Position numbers and translations under genes: made by a program | IMG/VR virus record: IMGVR_UViG_2695420792_000001 | Location: 1 to 6,287 of that record | Source of the DNA: a virus | Taxonomy: Monodnaviria; Loebvirae; Hofneiviricota; Faserviricetes; Tubulavirales; Inoviridae | DNA length: 6,287 bases | Strand: one strand, 5' to 3' | Shown: in pieces, positions 1 to 6,287 of the stretch | Position numbering within the stretch: position 1 is the stretch's first letter | Layout: each line of letters begins with the position of its first letter | The notes under the pieces: model-generated | What the model was told of the DNA's origin: nothing | The model's input: only the letters and a program-made list of their open reading frames with translations | The model's database searches: none

Positions 1-84
1 TTCGGGGGAAAAACGAGTATTTTTAGTCATCCTGTTTACCTCTTTCTCAGGAAGTTTAGTCTCCAGGATTCCCGGGGCGGTTCA
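1..84 (-). mobile_element. Partial IS3-family insertion sequence (IS629/IS1203-like), orfA-proximal terminal inverted repeat end; element body extends leftwards out of the window
   Basis: Bases 1-84 are the exact reverse complement of 5960-6043, which contains the terminal repeat TGAACCGCCCCGGGAATCCTGGAGA and the start of the transposase OrfA ([11 protein letters not shown]...). The element terminus is at position 84 (…TCA on the + strand). Confidence 0.85.
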
Positions 85-118
85 GGTTTCGATATCGATT
101 AAAGGTTCGATTCTGAAA

Positions 119-1048
119 ATGTCGGGAAATCCATCCCGATGGAACAGACTGGACAATTTGTTTGGTCACACTTCTGTTGATGCCTGTGTGCAGGTATACA
201 ACCGGATCCTGAATGACCTTGGTCTGCCGGAATTCACAAAATGTACGAAATTGTGGCAGAGACAGGCAAGTGAAACTGAAAAGGCCGGAACGGTTACTGA
301 TGGCGCATGTATTCGTGAAATTCACATTACATCCAACCGAACAGTCGGAGCAGATAATGTAGATGACTATATATCGGGCCTTTCAACATTACGGTATCGC
401 AATAGTGAGCCGCGATTACACAGCAACGGTAAATCAGTTGACTGGCTATCCAAAAAAGGAAACGCCTTGCTCATTTATCCGACTGTATATAATAAAGCAC
501 ATGAAATTAAGCTTCACTCCCTTAATAAAATAAAGAATAAATTCGGGGATTCATCAGCTGAAGTTTCATACATCAAAAAGATTATTGATTTCTGTCAGGA
601 ACAGGGCGTAGTCAGATTTGAGCAAAAACTTAAATCCCGGTATCTGCAACGTAACCATCTTATTTACTGGGGGCTTTCCGACTATTCAATACTCAATAAT
701 TTACATGATGATTTTTTAGCTCTTGATAAAAAGCTTATGGTGACGTCGATGGATTTTGAAACGATTAGTGAACATTTAATCAGTGAAGGCATTGTTGACT
801 CAACTCGATCAGCGAATACCACTGCGATGTATGCTATCCAGTGGATGCACGGTCACTCATTTGATTTTTCTAAAACACAGGTGCAAACCCATCGTGCCAG
901 GCTTAGAAAAATAGGTATTGACATTGCTCAGCGATGTAATATTTCCAAATTTAGCCCCGTTATTGTTAAGAAAGTGAGAGAAGTATCAGTAAGTGAATGC
1001 TTTATTCCATCATGGTATGTGAAACCACGTTATTTGCATGTTGCATAA
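119..1048 (+). CDS. Replication initiation protein (gene II-like), 5'-truncated by the IS insertion; reading frame is open upstream to the IS junction at 85 and into the IS, so Met119 is not the native start
   Basis: Large ORF immediately upstream of the gene V homologue, as in the Ff gene order. The frame has no stop between position 29 and 1048, so it runs across the IS junction. It contains a Y-x3-Y-x-K motif (IYPTVYNK, nt 476-496) reminiscent of catalytic tyrosine motifs in rolling-circle initiators. No direct sequence alignment is possible from memory. Confidence 0.55.
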   Translation: MSGNPSRWNRLDNLFGHTSVDACVQVYNRILNDLGLPEFTKCTKLWQRQASETEKAGTVTDGACIREIHITSNRTVGADNVDDYISGLSTLRYRNSEPRLHSNGKSVDWLSKKGNALLIYPTVYNKAHEIKLHSLNKIKNKFGDSSAEVSYIKKIIDFCQEQGVVRFEQKLKSRYLQRNHLIYWGLSDYSILNNLHDDFLALDKKLMVTSMDFETISEHLISEGIVDSTRSANTTAMYAIQWMHGHSFDFSKTQVQTHRARLRKIGIDIAQRCNISKFSPVIVKKVREVSVSECFIPSWYVKPRYLHVA

Positions 1049-1060
1049 GAGGATATTTAA

Positions 1061-1348
1061 ATGATTAAGATTGAAATTAAACAGTCTCAGGCCATTGCCG
1101 ATACGCGTTCTGGCGTGTCGAAGTCGACCGGGCAGGCGTATACAATTAATGAGCAGTCTGCATATATTTTTCTTGGCCAGGATTATCCACAACTCTTCAA
1201 GTTGAATCTTGACGCGGGTCAGGCACCATACCCGGCGGGATTATATACATTACATCCATCCAGTATTTACGTCGGTGATTTCCAGAAATTACGGGTAGGA
1301 AGAATCGTTCTGATTCCATATCAGGAAAATAAAGAACAGACTAAATAA
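1061..1348 (+). CDS. ssDNA-binding protein, Ff gene V protein homologue
   Basis: The 95-aa product MIKIEIKQSQA..TRSGVS...YTINEQ..Y..LG..YP.L.K..LD.GQ.PY..GLYT.H.SS..VG.F aligns along most of its length with recalled M13 gVp (MIKVEIKPSQAQFTTRSGVSRQGKPYSLNEQ...GLYTVHLSSFKVGQF). RBS AAGAGGA sits about 8 nt upstream. Confidence 0.9.
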   Translation: MIKIEIKQSQAIADTRSGVSKSTGQAYTINEQSAYIFLGQDYPQLFKLNLDAGQAPYPAGLYTLHPSSIYVGDFQKLRVGRIVLIPYQENKEQTK

Positions 1349-1357
1349 GGTATCGCT

Positions 1358-1576
1358 ATGGCTTCTCAGAATATAATGACTGGTAAGATTTGTGATGGCA
1401 ATACTGAGCAGAACTGCCAGATAATAACATTAAATTCCTCTGAGTTGCCATATCAGCAGCTCCCTCCGGCAGAAGATATTGCACTGGTATGGGGAACTGC
1501 TTTTACCTCTGTAATCGTCCTTTATTTAGTATCACACTGTATTGGACTCGTTTTAAATATGATAAAGAGAGCCTAA
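1358..1576 (+). CDS. Small protein with C-terminal hydrophobic segment, in the position of Ff genes VII/IX (putative minor virion cap protein)
   Basis: 72-aa ORF between the gene V and gene VIII homologues. It has a hydrophilic N-terminal half and one C-terminal hydrophobic helix (ALVWGTAFTSVIVLYLVSHCIGLVL). An AGG motif lies upstream. The call rests on synteny only. Confidence 0.4.
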   Translation: MASQNIMTGKICDGNTEQNCQIITLNSSELPYQQLPPAEDIALVWGTAFTSVIVLYLVSHCIGLVLNMIKRA

Positions 1577-1578
1577 TT

Positions 1579-1800
1579 ATGAAAAAGACCATTTTGAAAT
1601 CAGCTGTTGTTATTGCTTCCGTAGTACCTTTTCTGGCTAATGCAGCAGAGTCTGCCGGAGTGGATTTTACTGCATTGACTAATGCAGTGTCATTCGACAG
1701 TGTAATTGTGGCAATTATGTCCGTAGCCGGCATTTTGGTTGGTCTTTATGCCTCCATTGCCGGGGCAAAAACAGTTCTGCGTATGATCCGTGGGGCCTGA
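1579..1800 (+). CDS. Major coat protein precursor (gene VIII-like), 73 aa
   Basis: MKKTILKSAVVIASVVPFLANA is a signal peptide with an A-x-A cleavage site. The mature part has an acidic N-terminus (AESAGVDF), a hydrophobic core and a basic C-terminus (KTVLRMIRGA). Length equals the 73-aa M13 pVIII precursor. I prefer the ATG at 1579 to the ORF-track start at 1489, which would overlap the preceding gene. Confidence 0.8.
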   Translation: MKKTILKSAVVIASVVPFLANAAESAGVDFTALTNAVSFDSVIVAIMSVAGILVGLYASIAGAKTVLRMIRGA

Positions 1801-1807
1801 TAATACG

Positions 1808-1825
1808 GGCAGGGGAAACCCTGCC
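1808..1825 (+). terminator. Stem-loop downstream of the major coat protein gene (GGCAGGG-GAAA-CCCTGCC), candidate intrinsic terminator
   Basis: A perfect 7-bp GC-rich stem with a GAAA tetraloop begins 8 nt after the gene VIII stop. The downstream T tract is weak (TTCAGGAGTTTCTG). Ff phages carry a terminator at this position between genes VIII and III. Confidence 0.45.
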
Positions 1826-1922
1826 TTCAGGAGTTTCTGTGATATTACATTTCTGGCTAATTACCTGTTTTCTCTGGGGTCTTCTTTGTGCCTGGGCAGT
1901 TATAAAAGGATTAGGAGGGTAA

Positions 1923-3188
1923 ATGAAAACTCTTTTAATTGCATTGTTGTTATCTATCATTAGCTTTTATTCATACAGTGCAGAGAACGCAGCTGTTATT
2001 AATCAGACCATTTCAGGAACCATTAAAAACAAAATTACACAGCGTGGTTTCTCAGCGAATGATCCTCGATACTACGGAACATTAAAAGGTATTTCAGGTT
2101 ATCTAAATTCTACCGCTTCAGGTTCGAAAGCTTATACCGTTGCAGGTGTCTCTGGTCGTTCGTGGTTATCAGTTGGACTCAGAGGGGCTTTGTTAAGCCG
2201 CGGTACGCTTATAGCTCTTGCCGCTTCCGGTGCGGTGGCATGGCTAATTGAGACTGAGGACTCCGTACAAATCAAAGTAAAAGAAATAACGGGAGAGCAG
2301 GGTGTTAAAGGGTTTTACTGGAATATTGGCGCAGAAAGCTATGTTACAGCAACTGAGGGAGCTCAGTCGATATGCCAGCATAATCCGGCGTTCTGTCAGA
2401 CATACATAGTTGAGCAATATAATGCAGACCCGACAAGGTCTGATTTAAGAACCATCAAATTTTATATTGATTCATCTAAAACACAGCTTTGGGCATCACG
2501 AACTGCAAACCTTGTTTCCTGCGGTACAAATAAGGTTATGCCTACATGTCAGCCTGATTATGTGCCGGGTAGTAATGAAGTAATTAAAACCGTTAGCGTA
2601 CAGGATGCTATTAATAGCATTTCAGATACGGAAATGCAGACAGATCTTTCGCCAGAAGTTATTTCTGATGTTGTAAATAATGCATGGCAAAAAGCAGCCT
2701 CCGAAGCAGGGTATTCTGGTTTTGCATACGACCACACCAGACCAGTGACAGCGCGTGATGTAACTGCTTCAACTGGTGCTGCAAAGCCCGCTGTATCTGA
2801 CTTTCTCAAACCGTCAGACAAACCCGATTTTACACTACCTGCTGACACAACAGGGACAACACCAACCAATCCATCGACAGGAGAACAGGTTAATCTTGGT
2901 GATGATCCTGGTATTGGGCCGCCTGAACTGGAAAATATACCTGCAGGTACTGAAATTTTATCTCCATTATTATCATTCAACCCCTTTGAAGATTCAGCCG
3001 ATGCACTTAATGCAGAAAGCGAAAGAATTAAATATGCGGAGTGTCCAAAACCTGTACTGGATGTTTTTAACGGACAATATAAGTTAGAAACACATTGTAC
3101 ATTATTAAATAATAACGCTGCGATGATTGGTGTTATTTTTCTGTTCATTTACTCAATAGCAGCGTTCAGAATTATCCTTTCTGCATAA
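1923..3188 (+). CDS. Adsorption/minor coat protein (gene III-like), 421 aa
   Basis: Strong RBS AGGAGG about 5 nt upstream. The signal peptide MKTLLIALLLSIISFYSYSAE resembles the recalled M13 pIII leader (MKKLLFAIPLVVPFYSHSAE). The C-terminus has two Cys (ECPKP...THCTLL) followed by a membrane anchor (AAMIGVIFLFIYSIAAFRIIL), as in M13 pIII. A Pro/Thr/Gly-rich linker lies in the middle. Size matches pIII (424 aa). Confidence 0.85.
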   Translation: MKTLLIALLLSIISFYSYSAENAAVINQTISGTIKNKITQRGFSANDPRYYGTLKGISGYLNSTASGSKAYTVAGVSGRSWLSVGLRGALLSRGTLIALAASGAVAWLIETEDSVQIKVKEITGEQGVKGFYWNIGAESYVTATEGAQSICQHNPAFCQTYIVEQYNADPTRSDLRTIKFYIDSSKTQLWASRTANLVSCGTNKVMPTCQPDYVPGSNEVIKTVSVQDAINSISDTEMQTDLSPEVISDVVNNAWQKAASEAGYSGFAYDHTRPVTARDVTASTGAAKPAVSDFLKPSDKPDFTLPADTTGTTPTNPSTGEQVNLGDDPGIGPPELENIPAGTEILSPLLSFNPFEDSADALNAESERIKYAECPKPVLDVFNGQYKLETHCTLLNNNAAMIGVIFLFIYSIAAFRIILSA

Positions 3189-3197
3189 AGGTGATTT

Positions 3198-3485
3198 ATG
3201 TTTGGCATCATGACCTCTGTTTTATATGGCGTTCTTGGGTTTTTATTGCGCTCAGTTATTGTGAAGTTTACGGTGTTTTTTGCATTGTATTTTATTGTGC
3301 AGGAATTCGTGCCGCTTATTCTCGATATGGTTAATCGCCAACTCCCACTTCTTGCGTTAATTTCAAGTATTCCAGATAGCCTGAAATATTTCTTCTCTGT
3401 TTTTAAAGTTATAGATGGGATTAACATAATACTTTCAGCTTTTGTGACTCGCTTTATTATTCGTCGAATTCCGGTAATAGGATAA
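3198..3485 (+). CDS. Minor coat protein (gene VI-like), hydrophobic 95 aa
   Basis: Highly hydrophobic small protein immediately after gene III and before gene I, matching Ff synteny. RBS AAGGTGA upstream. Confidence 0.7.
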   Translation: MFGIMTSVLYGVLGFLLRSVIVKFTVFFALYFIVQEFVPLILDMVNRQLPLLALISSIPDSLKYFFSVFKVIDGINIILSAFVTRFIIRRIPVIG

Positions 3486-3489
3486 TTTT

Positions 3490-4515
3490 ATGGCTGTATC
3501 ATTGTATATGGGTGTGATGGGGAGCGGTAAAACATACGAGGTTGTTTACAGTGTTATTATCCCTGCGGTTTCAGCAGGCCGCCGTGTAATCACCAATATC
3601 AAAGGGATAAATGAAGAGAAAATACATGAGTATTGTCGTTCTAAATTCAAGACTAAGCAGCCTGGTCGTGTTGTTTTCGCATCGACGGATGAAATATTAA
3701 AGGATGATTTCTTCCCTTTTTACTCTGATGATGAATCTTCAGAACAAAAAGCAGCATTTTGTGAATATGGTGATCTGATTTGTCTTGATGAATTATGGTC
3801 AATATGGCCATCGGACTCAAAACTATCTGAGGCACATAAAAGATTTATTTCAATGCACCGTCATATGACACATGCTGTTAGTGGGGTATCATGTGATTTG
3901 GTCATCATCAATCAGGGTGTAGATGGTGTACCCCGGTATCTTAAAGAGCGTATTGAATCGACATACCGGATGACCAAACTAAAATCTTTGGGGCTATCAA
4001 AGTCATATCGTGTCGATGTTTTTTCTGGTGCCAAAGTATTCAAAAATAATAAAGTCAGTACTCGTAACTATCAGTACAAAAAAGCCGTTTTTGAATTATA
4101 CAAATCTTATGAAACCACTAACGGAATGGAAGCGACAACAGACTCTAGACAAAACGTTTTTTCATCCGCCTTTCTTTGGGTGAAAATTGCATTTTTATTA
4201 TTTATTGTACTGGCTTCTATATATTCAATAAGAACGGTCTGGGTGGATATTAGAGGAGAGTCAGTACCAGAGCCGAAACATACCGAACCGGAGGTTGTAC
4301 TGCCTTCATCAGAAAAGATTGCGAAACCTGATGCCCCGTACTCAAAGCGCTGGCGTATTGCCGGGGAGTTAAAATCAGATTATGTCAGCAAGGTTGTTCT
4401 TACAGACAGCAATGGTCGGTTTAGAACGCTACCGGCAAATCAGTTCGACGGAGAAGGTTTTACTTTAAGTGGAATCATTGATGGTGAAATTGTCACCTAT
4501 TTTACTGGGGGTTAA
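3490..4515 (+). CDS. Phage assembly protein pI (Zot-family P-loop NTPase), 341 aa
   Basis: The N-terminus MAVSLYMGVMGSGKTYEVV carries a Walker A motif (GxxGSGKT) and resembles recalled M13 pI (MAVYFVTGKLGSGKT). A single transmembrane helix (FLWVKIAFLLFIVLASIYSI) lies about two thirds along the protein. It sits directly upstream of the secretin gene. Confidence 0.9.
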   Translation: MAVSLYMGVMGSGKTYEVVYSVIIPAVSAGRRVITNIKGINEEKIHEYCRSKFKTKQPGRVVFASTDEILKDDFFPFYSDDESSEQKAAFCEYGDLICLDELWSIWPSDSKLSEAHKRFISMHRHMTHAVSGVSCDLVIINQGVDGVPRYLKERIESTYRMTKLKSLGLSKSYRVDVFSGAKVFKNNKVSTRNYQYKKAVFELYKSYETTNGMEATTDSRQNVFSSAFLWVKIAFLLFIVLASIYSIRTVWVDIRGESVPEPKHTEPEVVLPSSEKIAKPDAPYSKRWRIAGELKSDYVSKVVLTDSNGRFRTLPANQFDGEGFTLSGIIDGEIVTYFTGG

Positions 4516-4516
4516 T

Positions 4517-5728
4517 ATGAAATTATTTTATATCATAATAATGGTATTTATGATTCCACCTGCATTATCAAAAGGCGTTATACTGAATCTCTCAGGATTA
4601 ACGCTTAATGATGCCATTACTTTGTTTTATACTGAAGTTATGAGAAAACCGTTCATGGTTTCTCCTGAACTTATCACGGACAAACGACAAGTTAATTTCA
4701 ATATTACGCCAGATATGGATGAGTATACGTTTATTATGCGTTATCTCCAGAATGCCGGAGTCTCTGTAGCCAGAAAAAATGGTGTGGATTACTTTTATCT
4801 CCAGGAGAAAAAAGTATACGAAGCCCCGAAATATTCTTTTGTTTACACACCACAGTACCGTTCTGTTGCTTATCTGGCTGATATTCTTCAGTCACAAGTG
4901 AGCGGGTCATTTTCAAATGGTGGGCAAATAGGGCATGGCGATGTTTCTCCTGCGATGATTAAAGACAATACCGCATCCGATTTTTTGAGCAGAAATGGGG
5001 ATGTACTTGTTTTTTACGGTACGAAAAAAGACATTCAGCGGGTCGAAGATTTGCTTCCTCTTATCGACCGGGCCGCCGAAGAAGTTATTGTCGCCGGGTA
5101 CGTGTTTGAGGTTCAGACGTCTGAGCGAAATGGTTCTGGCCTGGCACTGGCTGCCAAACTTATGTCGGGAAAATTCACAATAGAAACGGGTACTGCACAA
5201 GGACTCAGCAACTTTGTCCGTTTCAGTTCTGGATCGCTCGATGCACTTTATGAGTTGTTCAGAACAGACAGCCGTTTTCACGTCGTCAGTTCGCCACAAT
5301 TGCGGGTCAGAAATGGCTCTAAAGCATCATTTTCTGTGGGATCTGACGTGCCGGTACTCGGTCAGGTCAGCTATGTTGATGGTCGTCCGGTTCAGTCCAT
5401 TGATTATCGTTCAAGTGGCGTAATTTTTAACGTTCAGCCGCAAATCCGGGCTGCTACGATTGACCTTAATATTCATCAGCAACTGTCTAATTTTGCAAAA
5501 ACAGAGACTGGGGTGAATAACAGCCCGACGCTCATTAAACGGGAGGTGAACACCGATGTTTCGCTCAAGGATGGCGACATAATTTTACTTGGTGGTCTGG
5601 CTGAGAATAAAGACAGTAATGCAGATACGGGCCTGTCATTTTTGCCGTCATGGTTCGGAACAACGGCAACTGAAAAAGCAAAAACAGACATCATTATTGT
5701 ACTTCAGGCCAGAAAAATCAGGCGGTGA
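4517..5728 (+). CDS. Secretin, phage pIV-like outer-membrane export channel, about 403 aa
   Basis: Signal peptide MKLFYIIIMVFMIPPALS. The C-terminal secretin-type region (VSLKDGDIILLGGLAENKDSNADTGLSFLPSWFG) resembles the recalled pIV C-terminus (…MDGQPLLLGGL…GVPFLSKIP…). I chose the start at 4517 because it follows the gene I stop (4513-4515) and a GGGGG RBS; the ORF-track start at 4469 would lie inside gene I. Confidence 0.88.
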   Translation: MKLFYIIIMVFMIPPALSKGVILNLSGLTLNDAITLFYTEVMRKPFMVSPELITDKRQVNFNITPDMDEYTFIMRYLQNAGVSVARKNGVDYFYLQEKKVYEAPKYSFVYTPQYRSVAYLADILQSQVSGSFSNGGQIGHGDVSPAMIKDNTASDFLSRNGDVLVFYGTKKDIQRVEDLLPLIDRAAEEVIVAGYVFEVQTSERNGSGLALAAKLMSGKFTIETGTAQGLSNFVRFSSGSLDALYELFRTDSRFHVVSSPQLRVRNGSKASFSVGSDVPVLGQVSYVDGRPVQSIDYRSSGVIFNVQPQIRAATIDLNIHQQLSNFAKTETGVNNSPTLIKREVNTDVSLKDGDIILLGGLAENKDSNADTGLSFLPSWFGTTATEKAKTDIIIVLQARKIRR

Positions 5729-5959
5729 GAGCAGGGCGGCCAGCCCCGCAGCTCCGTGAGGAGCTGGCCGTACTGAGACACCGACTGTTGATTGATTGTG
5801 TAAATCATGAACGGCGTGATTTGCGCATGCGCAAATTTCTCGTCAATTCTTATGGGGAATCTATGGCTACAAAGTTGAAGTTTATCCGACTGAAAATTGA
5901 AGATGAGTTAATCCAGCCGGTTAATAATCTGGCAGGCATTCGCGATGAGTTAAAGGCCG
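5729..5959 (+). promoter_or_regulatory. Remnant of the phage intergenic region, truncated at 5959/5960 by the IS insertion; contains a GC-rich dyad and a perfect 18-bp palindrome
   Basis: Located after the gene IV stop, where Ff phages carry a terminator, the packaging signal and the origins. Hairpin CAGCTCC-GTGA-GGAGCTG at 5749-5766, or the alternative CGGCCAGC/GCTGGCCG pairing at 5737-5770. Perfect palindrome ATTTGCGCATGCGCAAAT at 5819-5836. Confidence 0.5.
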
Positions 5960-6287
5960 TGAACCGCCCCGGGAATCCTGGAGACTAAACTTCCTGAGAA
6001 AGAGGTAAACAGGATGACTAAAAATACTCGTTTTTCCCCCGAAGTCCGTCAACGGGCAGTCCGTATGGTTCTGGAAAGTCAGGATGAATATGACTCACAG
6101 TGGGCGGCAATTTGTTCCATTGCCCCAAAGATTGGCTGTACGCCGGAGACTCTGCGTGTCTGGGTTCGCCAGCATGAGCGGGATACCGGGGCGGTGATGG
6201 TGGGCTCACCAGCGCTGAACGTCAGCGTCTGAAAGAGCTGGAACGTGAAAATCGTGAACTGCGCCGCAGTAACGATATCCTTCGCCA
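5960..6287 (+). mobile_element. Partial IS3-family insertion sequence (IS629/IS1203-like), orfA-proximal end; element continues beyond the window
   Basis: Terminal repeat starts TGAACCGCCCCGGG at 5960. OrfA begins at 6014 with [23 protein letters not shown]…[18 protein letters not shown], which matches my recollection of IS629 OrfA. Identical over 84 bp to the inverted copy at 1-84. Confidence 0.9.
6014..6232 (+). CDS. IS3-family transposase OrfA (helix-turn-helix N-terminal part); frame is interrupted before the leucine-zipper segment, which continues in the -1 frame from 6178 to the window end
   Basis: The ORF encodes the HTH-like N-terminus and stops at 6230-6232. The leucine-zipper-like sequence [19 protein letters not shown] is read in the -1 frame from 6229 onward. 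The two frames overlap at 6178-6232, around a G4 run at 6188-6191. Confidence 0.7.

Follow-up and report, generated by a model that had tools for sequence, protein, structure and literature searches.

The DNA analysed here, a stretch of 6,287 nt (IMG/VR record IMGVR_UViG_2695420792_000001) referred to in full as the window, carries a block of filamentous phage genes at positions 85-5959, flanked on each side by one end of an IS629-family insertion sequence (IS). In the list of open reading frames (ORFs), eight consecutive ORFs on the + strand of the phage part follow the order II-V-(one 72-aa ORF)-VIII-III-VI-I-IV. A ninth, truncated gene, orf104, also lies within the phage part, and the content of the window is thus seven intact genes (V, orf72, VIII, III, VI, I and IV) and two truncated ones (II and orf104). 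An exact-protein look-up identified the window as the entire draft contig CYEH01000056.1 of assembly GCA_001284685.2. We conclude that the phage part very probably represents the central 65% of a 9.0-kb temperate inovirus of Escherichia coli, preserved as a recent, defective and IS-bracketed remnant. The features are listed in Table 1.

Table 1. Features of the 6,287-nt window, in order of position.
Feature	Positions	Strand	Remarks
IS629-family (IS3 family) left end (left inverted repeat, IRL), 5' leader/orfA start	1-84	-	Points leftwards; contig ends inside
Gene II, pII rolling-circle replication initiator	86-1048	+	Without first 50 codons, start codon and promoter
Gene V, single-stranded DNA (ssDNA)-binding protein, 95 aa	1061-1348	+	Pfam Phage_DNA_bind E=2e-24; PHROG 1199
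72-aa ORF (orf72) in VII/IX position	1358-1576	+	PHROG 3679 E=6.5e-9, function unknown
Gene VIII, major coat protein precursor, 73 aa	1579-1800	+	PHROG 2186 'virion structural protein' E=1e-18
GC-rich hairpin (GGGCAGGG-GAAA-CCCTGCC core)	1796-1831	+	Overlaps gene VIII stop, extends just past it
Gene III, adsorption/terminal cap protein, 421 aa	1923-3188	+	PHROG 7187/3942
Gene VI, minor coat protein, 95 aa	3198-3485	+	Pfam DUF2523 E=1.5e-13; PHROG 974 'minor head protein'
Gene I, Zot-type assembly ATPase, 341 aa	3490-4515	+	Pfam Zot E=1.7e-25; PHROG 197 E=2e-65
Gene IV, outer-membrane secretin, 403 aa	4517-5728	+	Pfam Secretin E=7e-25; signal peptide
Imperfect GC-rich hairpin, 69 nt	5719-5787	+	Overlaps gene IV stop, extends just past it
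orf104, accessory gene, first 32 codons of 104 aa	5863-5959	+	Cut by right-hand IS
IS629-family left end (IRL) and orfA	5960-6287	+	Points rightwards; contig ends inside; Pfam HTH_Tnp_1

The original prediction, made from the sequence letters, had described eight tightly spaced + strand genes in the order known from the Ff phages, and the ORF coordinates, Pfam and PHROGs all agree with this description. Only 2 nt separate the stop of the 72-aa ORF (1576) from the ATG of gene VIII (1579), and a single nucleotide lies between the end of gene I (4515) and the start of gene IV (4517). Pfam recognized Phage_CRI/G2P_X_C, Phage_DNA_bind, DUF2523, Zot and Secretin domains among the products, and the expected similarity to inovirus proteins was found throughout, with a phage-family match in PHROGs for all eight ORFs. 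The boundaries at 85 and 5959 are exact, since the IS ends fill the remainder of the window, and the impression that the phage part is the more AT-rich is borne out by a GC content of 41.3%, as compared with 46.4% and 54.0% in the two IS ends. The assumption of two small genes, VII and IX, was mistaken, as a single 72-aa membrane protein is encoded in their place.

The traits expected of the Inoviridae are present: a rolling-circle initiator of the pII type, here without its first 50 codons, is followed by a pV ssDNA-binding protein, the morphogenesis ATPase is of the Zot/pI type and has a membrane anchor, and a small coat protein with a signal peptide and a hydrophobic core is encoded together with minor coat proteins on one strand and in the conserved order. 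Furthermore, the hydrophobicity profiles match the membrane topologies expected for pVIII, pIII, pI and pIV. The coat protein pVIII has two hydrophobic segments, corresponding to the signal peptide and one transmembrane or core helix, whereas pI has a single transmembrane segment (residues 222-254) and pVI has multiple hydrophobic segments. Scans of the window with Rfam and for tRNAs gave no match, and promoter and terminator consensus scans found sites no more numerous than in shuffled sequence.

The nature of the element becomes clear from intact copies. In a megablast search of 5,426 complete E. coli genomes, positions 82-5959 of the window were recovered at 99.5-99.8% identity in nine, all of them chromosomal, whereas no plasmid record and no phage record contains the phage part. 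The proposal that the phage resides in a chromosome or a plasmid thus stands for the chromosome, where it lies beside dif in nine genomes, and finds no plasmid record to support the other half. The intact unit comprises 9,000 nt and about 13 genes and often occurs in tandem, the array being located between hipA and the ydeQ fimbrial cluster. An exact copy of the 28-nt E. coli dif site is found at the right end of the array, and the left end and the junctions between copies carry GGTGCGCATAATGTACGACACGTTATGT, which has the XerC arm and the first central bases in common with dif. This dif-flanked pattern was seen in the intact copies L001, L002, L007-L010 and L013. The window itself yielded no dif-like site, because that part of the phage is missing from it.

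No integrase or recombinase is annotated or was detected in the 9.0-kb unit. Because the flanks consist of dif and dif-like hybrid sites, the copies stand in tandem and no integrase of its own is encoded, we infer that the intact phage exploits the host XerCD recombinases and conforms to the pattern of a XerCD-dependent integrating element (IMEX), such as CTXφ, CUSφ, Ypfφ and UPΦ (summarized in PMC7307601).

On the - strand, the intact unit has a variable cargo position and a 177-aa repressor-like gene with a helix-turn-helix (HTH) motif. The + strand carries II (371 aa), V, orf72, VIII, III, VI, I and IV, followed downstream by orf104, a gene for an 88-aa HigA-family antitoxin (RefSeq name) and a 59-aa ORF. 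The cargo position is occupied either by a gene for a 358-aa protein, which has no family, or by genes for a DUF2971 protein and an MtlR-like protein. In strain LD39-1 (L002, 5787-6596, - strand; also in L007 and L008), the DUF2971 protein was matched by PADLOC to the candidate defence system PDC-S31 (E=9e-48), and some copies of the phage may therefore carry an anti-phage defence gene.

In addition to the nine genomes, two contigs in IMG/VR are 99-100% identical. Sensitive blastn searches identified a pII-pV module at about 68% identity in about 14 additional E. coli genomes and related pIV genes in about 150 genomes, most of these at dif-compatible positions. Literature searches turned up the paper on the related UPΦ but none that describes the phage itself. 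We regard it as a rare and apparently unnamed phage of a well-known kind of element, though it is present in RefSeq genomes and in IMG/VR.

When compared with the intact phage, the description of the phage part as near-complete is overstated, because only 5,875 of about 9,000 nt (~65%) are present and the N-terminus of pII, the promoter and repressor region and the attachment site are absent. The cargo is missing too, as are the greater part of orf104 and both genes that follow it. The original prediction had looked to the full contig for the rest of gene II and the origin, but the contig is the window, and the start of gene II and the candidate origin lie outside it.

Intact homologs of pII have 371 aa, and the window begins at codon 51. 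The Phage_CRI match starts from profile position 64 and the PHROG 702 match from profile position 65, while the G2P_X_C domain is recognized at E=4e-26. In the intact copies, the 50 residues that the window lacks are 82% identical to their counterpart in phage If1, and this identity marks them as a genuine, conserved portion of pII. Translation from an in-frame ATG at 119 could yield an N-truncated product of 309 aa; the same 309-aa product is also called in intact phages and is thus not diagnostic of the junction.

The candidate replication origin is also located outside the window. A 50-nt element with two hairpins at 7155-7204 in the intact prophage L001 is 96% identical to positions 5052-5101 in the major intergenic region of If1 (NC_001954). 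The second stem shows a compensatory change, CCCCGG/CCGGGG in one of the two sequences and CCGTGG/CCACGG in the other. Because If1 and the prophage also have the replication protein in common, the element is read as a candidate origin.

The insertions appear to be recent. The Logan contig ERR14205758_2281 (L013, 1-8028) is 100% identical to positions 82-5988 of the window, including the junction between orf104 and the IS, and continues leftwards through a full gene II, the repressor gene, the 358-aa cargo gene and a hybrid dif site. The insertion in orf104 was thus seen in two samples, the one in gene II only in the assembly of the window. Because ERR14205758 has only the right-hand junction, we suggest that orf104 was interrupted first and that the IS entered gene II later, in an event specific to the strain. 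The proteins encoded in the window are those of strain PCP06021, except for the substitution T156A in pIII. As an identical copy still has the left part, the seven genes that remain intact reflect recency rather than selection.

The accessory gene orf104, which is intact in complete genomes (13782-14096 of L001), had no significant match in Pfam or PADLOC. The right-hand insertion has created a fused ORF of 87 aa at 5725-5988, a look-up of which returned only CYEH01000056.1 and one Logan contig; for a fused orf104 of 41 aa or 53 aa, no record was found.

The two IS ends are closely related. Positions 1-84 are identical to positions 1-84 of IS629 from VT1-Sakai at 82 of 84 sites and to an IS3-family copy in E. 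coli E686 at all 84, and 5960-6287 matches IS629 at 321/329 and the E686 copy at 328/329, the sole gap being in a run of G. The arms at 1-84 and 5960-6043 are 100% complementary. Membership of the IS629 group is indicated by the terminal inverted repeat, which begins TGAACCGCCCCGG, and by orfA, which matches that of IS629 (98% overall). The orfA of the right-hand IS (6014-6232) has four G at 6188-6191, as compared with five in IS629 and E686, and is frameshifted after residue 59. The lost G may represent a genuine inactivating mutation or a homopolymer or assembly error at a collapsed repeat.

Only the first 328 nt of the right-hand IS are in the window, and the distal ends of both copies lie off the contig. 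Because an IRL is seen on each side, two copies in inverted orientation are required, of which the left one sits within gene II after codon 50 and the right one within orf104. Such inward-facing ends fit a second, independent insertion in the opposite direction as well as an IS-mediated inversion, and the data do not separate the two. In the look-ups suited to reveal a junction, the two IS-phage junctions occurred together only in CYEH01000056.1, which is listed for 2 samples.

The same IS variant is present as an inverted pair with the IRL ends facing inwards on the E. coli E686 chromosome (L022, 317-1530 and 5146-6359), where it encloses a truncated DEAD/DEAH helicase gene and a hypothetical gene. 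In view of this similar pair, the variant seems to form inverted brackets repeatedly.

As for the ancestry of the phage, comparisons by tblastn with M13, IKe and If1 gave different answers for different genes. The initiator pII is 72% identical to ORF320 of If1 over 320 aa (68% at the nucleotide level) and has no significant match in M13 or IKe, whereas pV is 53% identical to its M13 homolog (E=8e-26) and 52% to that of IKe, with none significant in If1. The secretin pIV aligned with M13 in the secretin domain (25.5%, E=5e-18), with IKe in the C-terminal secretin domain (30%) and only marginally with If1 (E=0.04). For pI, the N-terminal matches covered 37 residues in M13 (E=0.05), 72 in IKe (E=0.10) and 125 in If1 (E=0.003). 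The match of pIII was confined to the leader region of M13 (E=0.007), with none significant in IKe or If1, and pVIII and pVI had no significant match in any of the three.

The protein families give a similar division. The window and M13 differ in the PHROG assigned to pVIII (2186 vs. 1646), pIII (7187/3942 vs. 8482), pVI (974 vs. 1944) and pI (197 vs. 1675). Families in common with M13 are found only for pV, which belongs to PHROG 1199 in both, and for pIV, which falls in PHROG 1012, 'assembly (protein IV of M13)', at E=7e-124; pI is common at the broad Zot level. This comparison with M13 concerns the proteins other than pII, whose family, PHROG 702, is common with IKe and If1.

The resemblance to M13 proteins that had been proposed thus holds for pV and for the secretin domain of pIV, is marginal for the N-terminus of pI and the leader of pIII, and fails for the C-terminus of pIII, which has no M13 match by BLAST. 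By the same token, the label Ff/IKe-like is apt for the gene order, pV and the family of pIV, but not for pVIII, pIII, pVI and pI, while pII is If1-like. The nearest relatives of these four proteins are found in the UTI89 dif prophage, an E. coli A37 episome and metagenomic inoviruses.

Several known systems resemble the phage in part. With the Ff and IKe phages it has in common the order II-V-...-VIII-III-VI-I-IV on one strand, the tight spacing and a hairpin after gene IV. It differs from Ff in that one 72-aa ORF takes the place of VII and IX and in that the intact copies are temperate and carry accessory genes. We rejected membership of the Ff group (genus Inovirus), as there is no high nucleotide identity and pVIII, pIII, pVI and pI belong to other PHROG families.

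Likeness to If1 (Infulavirus) extends to pII, including the 50 residues missing here, the 50-nt element, the gene order and the possession of a pIV of its own. The lack of significant matches for pV, pVIII, pIII and pVI sets the two apart, and membership of Infulavirus was rejected since only pII and, in the intact copies, the 50-nt element are common with If1. If1 is not known to integrate, and its record has no dif site, repressor module or integration annotated. In the If1 reference, the first 50 residues of pII are encoded at NC_001954 7316-7465, in another frame and upstream of the annotated ORF320 (7464-8432). Because these conserved residues lie in a different frame, the reference seems to be frameshifted or mis-sequenced and its gene II annotated too short. 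The frame break at codon 50/51 of If1 coincides with the IS site in gene II of the window, which is probably a coincidence.

The dif prophage of strain UTI89, which we take to be of the CUSφ/Ypfφ type, is similar in another respect. It also occupies a dif site, flanked by genes of the hipA side and by the ydeQ fimbrial cluster and with an exact copy of dif at its right end, and its layout is alike: leftward HTH and cargo genes, then II, V, a small ORF, VIII, III, VI, I, IV and accessory ORFs. Identities amount to 52% for pVIII, 51% for pVI, 42% for pI, 52% for pIV and 32% for the C-terminal part of pIII, but neither pII nor pV gave a tblastn match at E<1e-3. The replication module is thus unrelated, the N-terminal region of pIII is not common to the two and the accessory genes differ. 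With an assembly module only 32-52% identical, values that place the phage far beyond the limits of that species, and with unrelated genes II and V, identity with the UTI89 type was rejected.

Prophages of the CUSφ and Ypfφ kind are integrated at dif in extraintestinal pathogenic E. coli (ExPEC) and Yersinia pestis (Gonzalez, 2002; Derbise, 2007, as cited in PMC7307601). The UPΦ phages, IKe-like viruses of the Enterobacterales represented by UPφ901 (Shapiro & Putonti, 2020), likewise integrate in tandem at dif, carry reverse accessory ORFs beside the attachment site and novel ORFs in the position of the Ff intergenic region, and combine replication and structural modules from different lineages. 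Their structural genes are about 70% identical to those of IKe/I2-2, their g3p has Gly-rich repeats and their genes II and V are Ypfφ-like (PMC7307601). In the window, by contrast, pVIII, pIII, pVI and pI have no significant match in IKe, the linker in pIII is Pro/Thr-rich, pII is If1-like and pV is Ff/IKe-like. Identity with UPΦ/Lineavirus was rejected, as the structural genes are not IKe-like and only pV (52%) and the C-terminal part of pIV (30%) match IKe.

Further relatives were found as well. An inovirus of E. coli A37 has a pII with 72.5% identity, a pIV with 61%, a pVI with 54% and a pI with 42.5%, and its ORF in the position of orf72 is 51% identical. It is deposited as a circular record of 7,439 bp named 'plasmid unnamed4' (NZ_CP195780.1, L023), a complete genome in the order VIII, III, VI, I, IV, three reverse genes, II, V and a small ORF, and also matches the A37 chromosome near 2.41 Mb. 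The circle is probably the replicative form of an active, related phage. The best match in the phage databases, Dulem virus 52, is 41% identical in pI, 49% in pIV, 44% in pVI and 32% in pVIII. Together with Inovirus D_HF5_61, likewise uncultivated and from gut and saliva viromes, and betaproteobacterial prophages it forms a distant set (35-49%) whose replication proteins differ. The prophages of Uliginosibacterium (L016 and L017) and Undibacterium (L018, match at 8001-9050) are 35-41% identical in pI, 38-42% in pIV and 37-46% in pVI. In a pattern-based, non-exhaustive search of species-representative genomes, the assembly module had its nearest relatives in the Betaproteobacteria rather than in the Enterobacterales.

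Judged from these similarities, the phage is a mosaic and belongs with the inoviruses of enterobacteria that integrate at dif. Its likeness to Ff is chiefly architectural, and the comparisons point to a replication protein of the If1 kind, a pV of the Ff kind and an assembly module of the CUS/Ypf kind.

The protein pIII begins with a signal peptide, after which come an N-terminal region spanning some 300 aa, a linker rich in Pro and Thr, and a C-terminal domain that has two Cys and a membrane anchor. In the alignment of homologs, the N-terminal region is conserved and shows four conserved Cys and a Gly/Ala-rich hydrophobic stretch; it has no detectable relative of known structure. Homologs of pIII form 14 clusters only, in E. 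coli, Salmonella, Yersinia enterocolitica and Pectobacterium. The product of orf72 has one C-terminal hydrophobic segment (residues 40-70) and a basic tail, and is presumed from its position only to be a tip (minor coat) protein.

Two hairpins in the window may have roles that are familiar from the Ff phages. The one at the end of gene VIII sits where a terminator follows gene VIII in Ff, and such a role is suggested by this position. It is evident in the RNA fold, although the whole 131-nt region folds no better than shuffled sequences (z=-0.6), and the consensus terminator scan missed it because it lacks a T-run. The hairpin at the end of gene IV is far more stable than expected, with a DNA fold of -22.6 kcal/mol and a z-score of -4.8, none of 200 shuffles being equally stable. 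The M13 region in the corresponding position after gene IV folds at -29 kcal/mol (z=-4.0, DNA fold), and in the IKe record a hairpin where gene IV ends is annotated as a morphogenetic signal. By analogy of position with Ff and IKe, we tentatively consider it a candidate packaging signal. The assignment stays tentative because no conservation of the hairpin was detectable in two relatives, the A37 phage and Dulem virus 52.

We propose the following life cycle for the intact phage. It integrates at dif, presumably by means of the host XerC and XerD, without an integrase of its own. By homology, pII would nick the origin and drive rolling-circle replication, pV would coat the ssDNA, and pI in the inner membrane would form an export channel with the phage's own secretin, pIV, in the outer membrane. 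The DNA would acquire its pVIII coat during passage through this channel, and the 72-aa protein would form the cap at one tip of the filament, pIII and pVI that at the opposite tip. In the window, two inverted IS629-family copies bracket the segment, one in gene II and the other in orf104. Because the start and promoter of gene II, the repressor and cargo genes, the attachment site and the candidate origin have been separated or lost, the segment should be incapable of independent replication or excision; most likely it is a remnant defective in replication.

Some considerations weigh against this interpretation. The contig ends in both IS copies, and the missing parts may have been deleted or may merely lie beyond them, although gene II is interrupted either way. 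The ATG at 119 could yield a 309-aa fragment of pII, the inactivity of which is an assumption. Even for the intact phage, virion production and the use of XerCD are predictions from sequence, and the packaging signal and the origin are assigned by position and conservation only. Furthermore, the orfA frameshift and the IS junctions derive from a short-read draft assembly.

The strongest alternative is that the prophage is complete in the source genome and was merely hit by two simple IS insertions, with nothing deleted or inverted. The remaining 3.1 kb would then lie directly beyond the IS copies on other contigs: past one copy the N-terminal part of pII, the repressor, the cargo and the attachment site, and past the other the remainder of orf104, the HigA-like gene and dif. 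The right-hand junction in another sample with an otherwise intact left part suggests such a stepwise process, and IS629-family elements are very numerous in E. coli, the IS ends being matched in 3,741 of the 5,426 complete genomes. However, the contig ends within both IS copies, and inward-facing IRL ends are equally expected from an IS-mediated inversion. We would give this alternative somewhat less than an even chance; the conclusion about function would hardly be altered by it, since gene II and orf104 are disrupted anyway.

We also considered the possibility that the bracketed segment is a functional unit, either a composite transposon with an assembly and secretion module or a helper or export module domesticated by the host. 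Two inverted, identical IS ends do enclose the segment, all seven internal genes are intact and the hairpin resembling a packaging signal has been kept. The 100% identical copy that retains the left part explains the intactness by recency, however, and the bracketed arrangement is known from a single assembly record. In addition, no target-site duplication was seen, the orfA of the right-hand IS is frameshifted and the evidence for promoters is not above chance. We therefore regard a functional unit as highly improbable. A broader idea, in which the block, which has no replication or integration functions, is mobilized or retained as a helper module, be it as a composite transposon or as a packager of satellite or related inoviruses, and in which, separately, the N-terminal region of pIII represents a new receptor-binding class, is speculative and in our view improbable.

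Yet another possibility is that the segment is an episomal replicative form or a plasmid, as might be suggested by the circular record of the related A37 phage. Here an IRL on each side is incompatible with a simple circle containing a single IS, the nine full-length matches are all chromosomal with no plasmid record containing the phage part, and both the candidate origin and a complete pII are missing, which leaves this possibility very remote indeed. Finally, contamination by M13/fd/f1 or a phagemid vector, for which the original prediction had set an identity above 95% as the mark and which it had itself doubted, has practically no probability left: beyond the Ff-like gene order and the similarity of pV nothing speaks for it, nucleotide similarity to M13 is limited to 100 nt of gene V at 74%, a megablast search against 50,697 phage records matched the IS ends only, a sensitive blastn search found If1 gene II at 68% and none from M13, M13 gave no significant match to four of the eight proteins, and the same DNA lies at dif in nine complete chromosomes.

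Our findings make no long-standing question testable through the window as such. The window is a freshly IS-disrupted copy, and illustrates the erosion of prophages by IS629-type elements as well as the broken short-read assemblies that result. The intact relatives may be worthwhile subjects, with their variable cargo, including a candidate defence protein, and a pIII with an unknown receptor-binding region. The phage adds to CUSφ/Ypfφ and UPΦ a third type among the filamentous prophages that integrate at dif in E. coli, and provides a further case of the module swapping that has already been noted for UPΦ.

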